Part shown: positions 12,451-15,941 of the stretch, piece by piece
Layout of the letters: the number at the start of each line of letters is the position of its first letter
Numbering within the stretch: position 1 is the first letter of the stretch
Source: Candidatus Altimarinota bacterium
GTDB lineage: Bacteria > Patescibacteriota > Gracilibacteria > UBA4473
Assembly: GCA_018401175.1 (NCBI GenBank)
Contig: JAGYLK010000048.1
Location: 1 to 31,369, forward strand
Length of the DNA: 31,369 nt
Direction: 5' to 3'
Translations under genes and position numbers: made by a program
The notes under the pieces: generated by a model
The model's input: the letters and a program-made list of their open reading frames with translations, nothing else
What the model was told of the DNA's origin: nothing
Databases searched by the model: none

Positions 12451-12479
12451 CTTGAAACTTTTTTGAAAATCTGTACAAA
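12451..12479 (+). promoter_or_regulatory. nadK promoter
   Basis: TTGAAA-N17 (ending TG)-TACAAA, 7 nt before ATG 12487. Confidence 0.55.
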
Positions 12480-12486
12480 GACCATG

Positions 12487-13395
12487 ATGGAAAAATCTTC
12501 TCCCAAAACTTCATTTCGTCGGGTAGCAATTTATACGCATAATAAACCAGCGAAGGAAAAGGAGGAGCGGCAGTTTATAAAAGAAAAAATGATTCCTTTT
12601 CTCCAAAGAAATGGAGTCACAGAAATTCATGGAGATATCCGAACGGTTTCTTTGTTGGAAAGCGCAGTTGATTTGATTGACGATGAACAGTCATATGATT
12701 TGAAAATTGGAATCGGGGGAGATGGGACATTATTAAAAATGATGCGTACATTGCAAAAAAACGATGGATTGTTGTTGGGAATTAATTTTGGAACACTCGG
12801 ATTTCTTTCAGAATTGCACCCTTCTCAATGGGAAGAGACATTGACACAGATTTTTCGTGGAAAGTATTTTATAGATGAGCGGATGCTCCTGAAGGCTTTT
12901 GTATGGCGTCAAAATGCGCATGGAGAAAAGGAAAAGATATTTCGGGCGTACGCATTGAATGATTTAGTATTTGGTCACGGAGGATTAGCACGATTAACGA
13001 ATTTTCGTGTTCGAGTAGGACGTCGTAATCTTTCTACATATCGTGCAGATGGATTGATTTTTGCTACTCCGACTGGAACGACAGCATATTCTTTATCTGC
13101 AGGAGGTCCGATTGTTCATCCAGGAGTGAATGCGGTAACGGTTACTCCGGTTGCCCCACATCGATTAACGCATCGTCCTATTGTATTAGGGGCAGATCGG
13201 GCCATAAATCTTGATTTTGATGCGCGAGCAGAATCGGTTTCCTTGACGGTTGATGGACAGATTCATTTTTCTATGAGACCGACTGATGAGGTGACGATTC
13301 AGCGCGCAACCCGTACTGCGAAGTTTATTCGTTTGAAACAATCTCACTTTTTTCGTACGTTACGGAACAAGATGGGGTGGGGAGAGAAGAAATAA
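12487..13395 (+). CDS. nadK: NAD+ kinase
   Basis: GGDGTLL, GINFGTLGFL, ALNDLV, DGLIFATPTGTTAYSLSAGGPI, DGQ; start ATG 12484 or 12487. Confidence 0.96.
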   Translation: MEKSSPKTSFRRVAIYTHNKPAKEKEERQFIKEKMIPFLQRNGVTEIHGDIRTVSLLESAVDLIDDEQSYDLKIGIGGDGTLLKMMRTLQKNDGLLLGINFGTLGFLSELHPSQWEETLTQIFRGKYFIDERMLLKAFVWRQNAHGEKEKIFRAYALNDLVFGHGGLARLTNFRVRVGRRNLSTYRADGLIFATPTGTTAYSLSAGGPIVHPGVNAVTVTPVAPHRLTHRPIVLGADRAINLDFDARAESVSLTVDGQIHFSMRPTDEVTIQRATRTAKFIRLKQSHFFRTLRNKMGWGEKK

Positions 13396-13416
13396 TTTTT
13401 TAAAAGGAGAAGTATC

Positions 13417-13445
13417 TTGAAAAAAGGAGAAGTATTTGGTATACT
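13417..13445 (+). promoter_or_regulatory. Near-consensus sigma70 promoter of the IF-1-like ORF, with direct repeats flanking the -35 box
   Basis: TTGAAA-N17-TATACT with extended -10 TG; AAAAGGAGAAGTAT at 13402-13415 and 13422-13435. Confidence 0.7.
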
Positions 13446-13473
13446 TTTTCTTGGTTTTTTAAAAAATAGACTC

Positions 13474-13695
13474 ATGTCGTTGGAGATAATGGATGCCATA
13501 GTGATTAAAAAGAGACAGCAAAAACTCACTGTACAAGCAGAGAATGGAAATCAAAAGACGGAGTTTTTTAGTAATACAGTAGGAGCAAAAAAAATAGAAC
13601 ATATTCACGTTGGGGATTCCGTGAAAGTTTTGGTGAATCCATTATTTCACACACAAGGATCTATAAAGGCAGCTATAGAAAAAATACTTTTGTAA
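13474..13695 (+). CDS. Small OB-fold protein resembling a divergent translation initiation factor IF-1 (73 aa)
   Basis: VQAENG...IHVGDSVKVLVNPLFHTQGSI aligns by eye with IF-1 VELENG...[21 protein letters not shown]; has its own promoter and terminator. Confidence 0.5.
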   Translation: MSLEIMDAIVIKKRQQKLTVQAENGNQKTEFFSNTVGAKKIEHIHVGDSVKVLVNPLFHTQGSIKAAIEKILL

Positions 13696-13715
13696 AAAAG
13701 TTGTATCTCATTTCA

Positions 13716-13751
13716 AAAAGAAGGTGAGAAGTCGATTTCTCACCTTCTTTT
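13716..13751. terminator. Bidirectional terminator between the IF-1-like gene and hppA
   Basis: 15-bp stem AAAAGAAGGTGAGAA/TTCTCACCTTCTTTT between convergent genes. Confidence 0.85.
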
Positions 13752-13768
13752 CTAATAATAGACTGAAA

Positions 13769-15799
13769 TTATCCCAACAATCCGTTTGCCGTAAAGAGTC
13801 CAGCAAAAATTAATGAAACAACGGTCATTAGTTTAATTAAGATATTGATAGATGGTCCCGAGGTGTCTTTAAAAGGATCACCAACGGTATCACCTGTAAC
13901 GGCTGCTTTGTGTGCATCAGACCCTTTTCCTCCGTGCGCACCAGCCTCAATGTATTTCTTAGCGTTATCCCAAGCACCTCCTGAGTTCGCCATTGAGATA
14001 GCGAGCATTACTCCACTTACAAGTGCTCCTGCGAGCAATCCGCCAAGAGCGGTTGATCCAAGAAGAAGTCCCACAGCAACAGGAACAATCACCGCCATAA
14101 GTCCTGGTGCAATCATTTCTCGAATAGCAGCGGTAGTAGAGATGTCTACACAACGTGCGTGATCTGCTTTTGCAGTTCCTTCCATCAATCCTTTGATTTC
14201 TCGGAATTGACGACGTACTTCTTCAATCATGTCAAACGCAGCACGTCCGACAGCTGACATGGTCATAGCTGAGAAAACGAAGGGCAACAATCCTCCGAGA
14301 AGAAGACCGATAATTACATTTGGTGTCATGATATCGATTGCTTGCAAATTCGCCGCCTGTGAGTAGGCAGAGAACAAAGCAAGTGCGGTGAGTGCAGCAG
14401 ATCCGATGGCGAACCCCTTTCCAATCGCGGCAGTCGTATTTCCAGCAGAATCAAGTGCATCTGTCTTTTTTCGTACATCTGCTCCTAGTTCAGCCATTTC
14501 TGCGATTCCTCCGGCGTTATCGGCAACTGGTCCGTATGCGTCAACAGCAAGAGAGATTCCGAGAGTCGAAAGCATTCCTACAGCGGCGATAGCGATTCCG
14601 TAGAGTCCCGCAAAGTGGAACGCAATGAAGATAGCAACACAGATTAAAATAACAGGTGTAGCTACGGATCGATATCCGAGAGCGAGTCCTTCGATAATTG
14701 TCGTAGCGGCTCCTGTCGCGGTAGCGTCAGCTACTTTCTGTACTGGTGAGTGATTTTCAGAAGTGTAGTATTCTGTGATTTTTCCAATTGCAACTCCTAC
14801 AACAAGTCCACCAGCCATAGCGATGAATACGCCGAGACCGTTGTCTCCCAGGAAGTAATTTGCCAAAAAATATCCAGCAATAACGACGAGTGCAGAAGCG
14901 ATCCAGAGTCCTCCGTGAAGAGCTGCTCCGATGTTTTCTTTTTTTCCAACACGAACGAAGAATGTTCCGATAATAGAACAAATAATTCCAACTCCAGCTA
15001 AGGCAAGCGGGAAGAAGATTCCATTCATTCCAAATACGACAAATCCGAGAACCATCGCAGAGATGATTGATCCGACGTATGACTCAAAAAGATCTGCTCC
15101 CATTCCTGCCACGTCACCAACATTATCACCAACATTGTCGGCGATTGTTGCTGGGTTTCGAGGATCATCCTCTGGAATTCCTGCCTCAACTTTTCCAACT
15201 AAGTCAGCTCCAACGTCTGCCGCCTTGGTGTAGATTCCTCCACCAACACGAGCAAACAAAGCGATTGAAGATGCCCCAAGAGCAAATCCAGTAATAACAT
15301 TCAATATCACCTCTGTTTCAATTCCGAGCTGAGTGAAGAGTGCCATGAGAATGGTGAGTCCCAACAAACCAAGACCAACAACAGATAATCCCATAACGGC
15401 TCCCGATCGGAACGCTACCGTAAGAGCTGATCCCAAACTTGTACGAGCCGCTTCAGCAGTGCGTACGTTTGCCTTGGTCGCAATTTTCATACCAAAGAAT
15501 CCAGCAAGTACACTTGAGACAGCTCCATAGACAAAAGATACAGCCGTCCAAAGTCCTTCATTTACAGGGGTAAGTGAGTTATCTAAGAAGAAATACAAAA
15601 TAACCGCGAGTATTACAACAAAGATAGAAAGTACTTTGTACTCACGAGTGAGAAATGCCATTGCTCCTTCAGAAATAGCTTTTGCAATTTCTTGCATTTT
15701 TGCATTCCCAGCAGATTTTTTTCCGATGAGTACGGAAAAGATTGCGGCGACCAGAAGGGAAGCAAGACTGGTCAGTCCAATGATAAGGAAATAGTTCAT
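13769..15799 (-). CDS. hppA: Membrane-bound pyrophosphatase, K+-dependent type, Na+-PPase-like signature
   Basis: [67 protein letters not shown]; start ATG 15799 (MNYFLIIG). Confidence 0.97.
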
Positions 15800-15941
15800 G
15801 TGAGAAAAAGGGTTAAATTTTCGTTGCGAATTGTAGGGGAAATCAATGAGAACGCAAATTTTGTTGGAAGTTTGTAATTGCAGCAAAAACGAATTATTTG
15901 TCTCCTATAAAAAACAACGGATACATGAAATTATCACAAAC

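Follow-up and report, generated by a model that had tools for sequence, protein, structure and literature searches.

The locus examined here raised a simple question: does the 73-codon open frame that lies between nadK and hppA encode a second, functionally altered copy of translation initiation factor IF-1? The initial annotation, made by reading the DNA by eye, had proposed that it does, describing a stand-alone IF-1-like protein with its own promoter and terminator. IF-1 is universal and is encoded by a single essential gene, usually beside rpmJ-rpsM, and its SGKMR loop and C-terminal arginines contact 16S rRNA. We analysed the frame within its window (the whole 31,369-nt stretch of DNA containing it), within its genome of origin (G000, an assembly of 894 kb in 206 contigs, ~92% complete) and among the relatives of that genome.

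Results

A short gene downstream of nadK

The part of the window surrounding the frame contains the following features.

12463..13395, forward strand: nadK (NAD kinase), the upstream neighbour, which precedes the family members in five of the six genomes that have one.
13402..13441, forward strand: 20-bp tandem duplication spanning the -35 element, with AAGGAGAAGTAT occurring twice (at 13404 and 13424); seen in the sequence and absent in G002.
13417..13445, forward strand: putative sigma-70-like promoter, TTGAAA-N17-(TGg)TATACT, from a consensus scan (10/12) and conserved in G002.
13474..13695, forward strand: P0001, a stand-alone protein with a predicted OB fold, whose small family is restricted to Peribacteria; from translation, relatives and AF2 modelling.
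13716..13751, no strand assigned: hairpin (15-bp stem) lying between an A-run and a T-run, from fold energy and inverted repeat I1.
13769..15886, reverse strand: hppA (membrane pyrophosphatase), the convergent downstream neighbour, with the same arrangement in G050.

The 73-aa frame at 13474-13695 was correctly identified by the initial annotation, as judged by its stop-free translation on the forward strand, by its relatives and by the confident fold prediction described below. It starts 78 nt after the nadK stop codon and, like the rest of the G000 genome, reads cleanly with translation table 11. We conclude that it is a real gene, because a 99%-identical copy and 10 further small homologues were found, a conserved core pattern runs through them and several are syntenic orthologues. 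A longer alternative frame of 92 aa, starting with TTG at 13417, was rejected as it overlaps the conserved promoter-like site and is without a counterpart in the relatives, which begin at the short form. P0001 has no signal peptide, its C-terminus consists of hydrophobic residues, and no fusion partner for it or its relatives was found among 1.84 billion cluster representatives. Where the source databases give the family proteins any name, it is 'hypothetical protein'.

The promoter attributed to the gene, TTGAAA-N17-TATACT, was recovered by the consensus scan, and a TG precedes its -10 hexamer. In this AT-rich stretch promoter-like sites are not more numerous than chance would give (six over 2 kb, against 4.3 +/- 2.5 in shuffled sequences); this site carries weight because it is conserved in the sister species G002, whose orthologue is preceded by TTGAAA-N17-TATTAT, again with TGG, at a distance of 26 nt from the ATG (28 nt for P0001). 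The implied leader of P0001 is ~20 nt long, A/U-rich and without a Shine-Dalgarno motif. The duplication of AAGGAGAAGTAT around the -35 element may have arisen by simple slippage or may serve as an operator pair.

The hairpin downstream of the gene has a predicted energy of -20.9 kcal/mol (z = -4.57), and none of 200 shuffled sequences was as stable. As it is flanked by an A-run and a T-run and lies 17 nt from the stop codon of the convergent hppA (gene end at 13769), it is common to the two genes and can act as a bidirectional intrinsic terminator for both. Thus, the promoter-like site and the 15-bp stem of the initial annotation both exist, but the terminator is shared with hppA and does not belong to the small gene alone. 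An imperfect 17-nt direct repeat (13456-13472 and 13748-13764, 14/17 identical, both copies ending AATAGACT, spacing 292 nt) flanks the frame plus terminator and may be a matter of chance in AT-rich DNA; in G050, AAAATAGAC occurs just upstream of the orthologue, without a downstream copy.

A small family confined to a few genera

A word-indexed search of 5.8 billion proteins returned the 99%-identical copy as the sole match to P0001. A five-member profile run against the 1.84 billion cluster representatives collected 11 small proteins (67-107 aa) and no other credible match. The alignment of all 11 offered no conserved stretch usable for a search of related loci; a search with four members found nothing in metagenomes and, in genomes, one chance match in Paludibacter. 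The 11 proteins share a core: the first strand is rich in V/I and ends in Lys, and LTVQL-P-D-G, a Phe and GD-V-V follow; in their alignment G25 and F32 are invariant and K13 and G47 near-invariant. One member, P0012, is 47% identical to P0001. Net charge in the family varies between -7 and +6, and the helix region, which would be the counterpart of the basic loop of IF-1, is often acidic. Scans of all 11 members against Pfam, NCBIfam, PHROGs and PADLOC gave nothing significant, and PHROGs and PADLOC gave no link to a phage or defence family. The family is a new and unnamed one of a well-known fold class.

Several candidates were discarded along the way. The long repetitive proteins from the representative search (P0007, P0013 and others) were compositional noise by Pfam, P0022 is a periplasmic CusF/DUF1344-like protein, and, on inspection, genome-search matches to the C-terminal domain of GreA and to a stretch of G001 that is out of frame were judged to be due to chance.

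The family profile matched six of the 43 genomes of the order, in three genera, and among the 358 other genomes of the class it gave one marginal match, within a 385-aa frame. Its range is a few genera of a single CPR order, Peribacteria (GTDB class Gracilibacteria), and it is missing from G001, a congener of G000 whose genome is a single contig reported to be 100% complete. The G000 and G002 proteins are 32% identical, compared with 89% for the neighbouring nadK. This patchy distribution, the absence from G001 and the rapid divergence relative to nadK indicate that the gene is accessory, dispensable and fast-evolving.

Synteny revealed diverged orthologues 3' of nadK in G002 (same genus), in G006 and G050 (another genus) and in G045 (a third genus, in which a membrane ORF lies between nadK and the family member). 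In G044 the family copy sits after a miaB-like gene instead of nadK. The family frame of G006 begins 11 nt past the nadK stop codon, and because of this short gap it is probably co-transcribed with nadK. The region 3' of nadK (L005, L006 and window positions 13396-13770) is different in each of the three genomes of the genus. In G000, nadK is followed by the small ORF and then hppA; in G002, by the small ORF and then a 204-aa ORF with a hydrophobic N-terminus; and in G001, by a frame of at least 285 aa, the small ORF being absent. This spot has the look of a local hotspot for gene turnover.

Sequence tests of a relationship to IF-1

A search for a canonical IF-1 gene elsewhere in the genome found one: infA lies on contig C101 (L001:885-1160, forward strand), encodes 91 aa, passes PF01176 with 39.6 bits and is followed by rpmJ, rpsM, rpsK and rpsD. 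A canonical infA was likewise present in all 31 relatives searched.

The likeness to IF-1 that had been seen by eye turned out to be measurable and collinear, but weak, and it vanished at the level of the family. The TIGR00008 infA model matched residues 12-64 of P0001 on model positions 14-65, with E = 0.039 and 13.9 bits, which is 47 bits below the model cut-off of 61.15 bits. A sequence search of the PDB with P0001 gave IF-1 chain 4ql5 at E = 1. PF01176 was not listed for P0001 at E <= 10, and a scan of the whole genome at the same threshold found the canonical infA only. Against a profile built from 13 IF-1s of the lineage P0001 scored 7.0 bits, a value reached by none of 300 shuffled versions; this is to be expected of any OB protein, because shuffling destroys the strand periodicity, and in the same test P0012 scored like its shuffles and P0014 and P0006 were marginal. 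Just one of the 11 family members had an IF-1 match of any kind. The family profile found no IF-1 in the PDB, and hhalign of the family against the 13 lineage IF-1s gave a probability of 2.4%, with the GD-V-V strand alone aligned.

The residues by which IF-1 contacts 16S rRNA differ as well. Alignment of P0001 with the IF-1 of its own genome placed VGAKK at the SGKMR loop, and the C-terminal arginines were missing, so the initial annotation had been right that both are altered; the lysines of P0001 that align with SGKMR are acidic or neutral in most relatives. Nor did another named OB family lay claim to P0001, and a literature search on IF-1 paralogues found nothing useful. Taken as sequence comparisons, these results do not support placing the family in IF-1 or among the translation initiation factors, and the description of the gene as an IF-1 paralogue was not sustained.

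The canonical IF-1s of the order had some peculiarities of their own. Those of G000 and G002 (G002:C5:16300-16479) are 91 aa long, match the IF-1 model only as far as position 57 of 69 and score 51-53 bits, under the TIGR00008 cut-off, with ~15 extra residues in the b4-b5 loop where relatives have PYNLEEGRI. The IF-1 of G001, from the same genus, is normal (74 bits), and those of G007 and G014 have similarly shortened model matches. A correlation between the insertion-bearing IF-1 and the small ORF was considered, as G000 and G002 have both, but was dropped since G006 has the gene together with a normal IF-1. The IF-1s of the order (L048-L056) also share a TEGFEGH-type segment between b2 and b3, which by eye appears to exceed its E. 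coli counterpart by a few residues. P0001 is without this segment, and this makes it less likely that the gene arose by a recent duplication of the infA of its own lineage. The infA of G034 (G034:C40:21450-21659), from the same class, contains three in-frame TGA codons, in keeping with the TGA recoding of some Gracilibacteria.

Predicted fold and structural neighbours

The AF2 model of P0001, calculated from a five-sequence alignment, had a pLDDT of 86 and the order b1-b2-b3-helix-b4-b5, and that of the distant member P0010, from 12 sequences, had a pLDDT of 85 and the same topology. P0001 is thus predicted to be an OB barrel of the S1/cold-shock/IF-1 class, and both models agree with the size and type of fold proposed initially, a single OB domain of ~70 aa.

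A Foldseek search of the PDB with the P0001 model gave no match at E <= 0.001; the best rows were UNR cold-shock domains, IF-1, a NusA S1 domain and similar proteins. When this list was re-ranked, domain 2 of EF-P (1ueb) came out on top, at Z 7.0 with an rmsd of 2.5 A for 58 residues, followed by the S1 domains of Rrp44 and Dis3L2 (Z 6.4-6.8) and by aIF5A (6.1), with IF-1 from three species at Z 5.7-6.0 (58-65 residues, 17-24% identity), a mitoribosomal small-subunit protein at Z 6.5 and the UNR cold-shock domains at 5.4-5.8. An exhaustive VIA-align search gave 26 chains with Z >= 5 and none with Z >= 8, headed by the Dis3L2 S1 domain (6.4), the mitoribosomal small-subunit protein (6.2), Mop (6.1), a DNA-ligase OB domain (6.0) and EF-P (6.0); IF-1 scored 4.8 and aIF1A 5.0. 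By the guidance for the tool, rows within one Z unit are tied and values below 8 may reflect only a common arrangement. The structural search therefore does list IF-1 among OB neighbours of the model, but as one of many tied domains: IF-1 is compatible with the predicted fold and is not singled out by it. The nearest solved structures were without exception OB domains, most of them belonging to RNA or translation proteins. As no match reached Z >= 8 and none stood clear of the others, the fold match by itself says little about function.

Other searches gave weak leads at most. The only matches of the family profile in the PDB were weak ones to S1/cold-shock proteins (Rrp5, E = 0.051; GSP13, 0.48; UNR, 1.5), and the ESM Atlas returned sub-threshold leads with scores of 0.81-0.88, namely CBO2463-like, an S1-motif protein, IF-1 and DUF3006.

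Discussion

A probable accessory RNA-binding protein

Taken together, we consider that P0001 is probably a soluble OB-fold protein of ~70 residues that serves as an accessory RNA binder, with its own promoter and a terminator shared with hppA, and that it is not an initiation factor. Its gene would be transcribed from the promoter described above, with transcription ending at the bidirectional terminator common to hppA. Its ligand would be single-stranded RNA, bound with low specificity, or a particle that contains RNA (the ribosome, for example). Contact would be made by the canonical OB face, made up of strands b1-b3 and their loops in the model, on which the conserved Lys13 (at the end of b1) and Phe32 (at the end of b3) would lie, and the protein would act as a small RNA chaperone or modulator. 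Sequence-unspecific binding to single-stranded RNA or to ribonucleoprotein, and with it any role in translation, is what we infer: it is the most likely activity, because most of the structural neighbours are RNA-binding OB domains from translation and RNA-decay proteins and the weak sequence matches are to S1 and cold-shock proteins, and we would hold it at slightly under an even chance. Given the wide range of net charge in the family and the often acidic helix region, a conserved electropositive RNA-binding surface is not evident.

The Mop/TOBE proteins (Z 5.9-6.1) and the OB domains of DNA ligases match no worse than the RNA binders do. P0001 might instead bind a small oxyanion as Mop/TOBE proteins do, maybe a phosphate-type ligand, or a partner protein for which it would be an adaptor. 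MopII, Sporomusa Mop and ModG, which are close to P0001 in length, align with the model over 57-68 residues, the family profile picks up a periplasmic CusF/DUF1344-like OB protein, the charge of the family is variable and often acidic, and both neighbouring genes, nadK and hppA, handle phosphoanhydrides. However, none of the 11 members had a Pfam match to TOBE, Mop or CusF at E <= 10, the Z-scores of RNA-related OB domains are slightly higher, and the nadK/hppA context is found only in close relatives, is broken in G044 and may be plain inherited synteny; we regard a non-RNA ligand or a protein partner as unlikely, while giving this reading some weight. The same patchiness that marks the gene as accessory also bears on whether it does anything at all, as a young or decaying ORF with little or no function might be kept by chance 3' of nadK. 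Its loss from a complete congeneric genome, its low identity between species relative to nadK, the dissimilarity of the nadK-downstream region among the three genomes of the genus and the imperfect direct repeat around the frame plus terminator would all fit such an origin. Against this, the frame has stayed open across three genera with its hydrophobic pattern and its invariant Gly and Phe, two distant members gave confident and identical fold predictions from shallow alignments, and the promoter is conserved between species, all of which makes a functionless ORF improbable.

The proposal with which the analysis began, that P0001 is a diverged IF-1 paralogue, which would then bind the 30S A site and modulate initiation, for example on the many mRNAs of this genome that have no Shine-Dalgarno sequence, retains the best-named sequence match (collinear over ~52 positions), a score above all 300 shuffles (with P0014 and P0006 marginal), the same size and, for IF-1/eIF1A, the highest aligned identity among the top folds (17-27%, Z 4.9-6.0). 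Nevertheless, we now think it very improbable: the match falls 47 bits under the cut-off and is not seen in 10 of the 11 relatives, P0012 included; comparison of profiles gives a probability of 2.4% and aligns the GD-V-V strand alone; P0001 lacks the SGKMR loop and the C-terminal arginines, and its lysines at the place of the loop are unconserved in the family; and the gene is missing from most genomes of the order, while canonical infA was found in 31 of 31 relatives. Equally slight is the chance that P0001 is a lineage-specific, stand-alone OB protein of IF-1/S1-like type, which attaches to the small ribosomal subunit, or to 5' ends of mRNA that lack structure, and tunes Shine-Dalgarno-independent or leaderless initiation in a few Peribacteria, including the two congeners with the ~15-residue insertion in IF-1. 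We therefore retain the accessory RNA-binding protein as the preferred reading.

As things stand P0001 is one more uncharacterised small OB-fold protein of a CPR genome, and as such it matters little. If it acts on ribosomes, it would bear on how translation starts without Shine-Dalgarno sequences in bacteria with tiny genomes. More generally, some fast-evolving OB families of a single domain, easy to recognise by structure prediction, escape Pfam, NCBIfam, PHROGs and PADLOC, and the case is a warning that a by-eye likeness of motifs between two OB proteins can reflect strand periodicity and not paralogy.

Comparison with known systems

The likeness of P0001 to IF-1 (PF01176/TIGR00008) consists of its length of ~70 aa, its stand-alone OB domain, the order of its strands and a weak collinear sequence match; unlike the P0001 family, IF-1 has the SGKMR loop, the C-terminal arginines, the rpmJ neighbour and universal occurrence. 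S1 domains (PF00575), such as those of GSP13/YugI of B. subtilis and the C-terminal ones of Rrp44, Dis3L2 and RNase R, match at Z 6.4-6.8, within one Z unit of the best match but tied with OB domains of other kinds, and the family profile weakly matches S1 strand b4 (l-vGD-V-VkV) in Rrp5 and GSP13. PF00575, for which the match threshold is 22 bits, was listed at E <= 10 for none of the 11 family members, and a genome scan at the same E-value found six S1 domains, none of them at P0001: these belong to one frame with four S1 repeats and to single-S1 frames of 711 and 406 aa, which by their size are probably PNPase and NusA. Domain 2 of EF-P and the C-terminal OB domain of aIF5A include the best single structural match (1ueb), but they are domains of larger factors, are 10-12% identical with no sequence signal, and have a lysine-modified domain 1 that is without counterpart in P0001. 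The oxyanion-binding OB proteins of the Mop/TOBE type are similar in size (67 aa) and fold; they differ in having no sequence match to P0001, in anion-binding motifs that Pfam did not find in the P0001 family and in a structural alignment that stops at residue 62.
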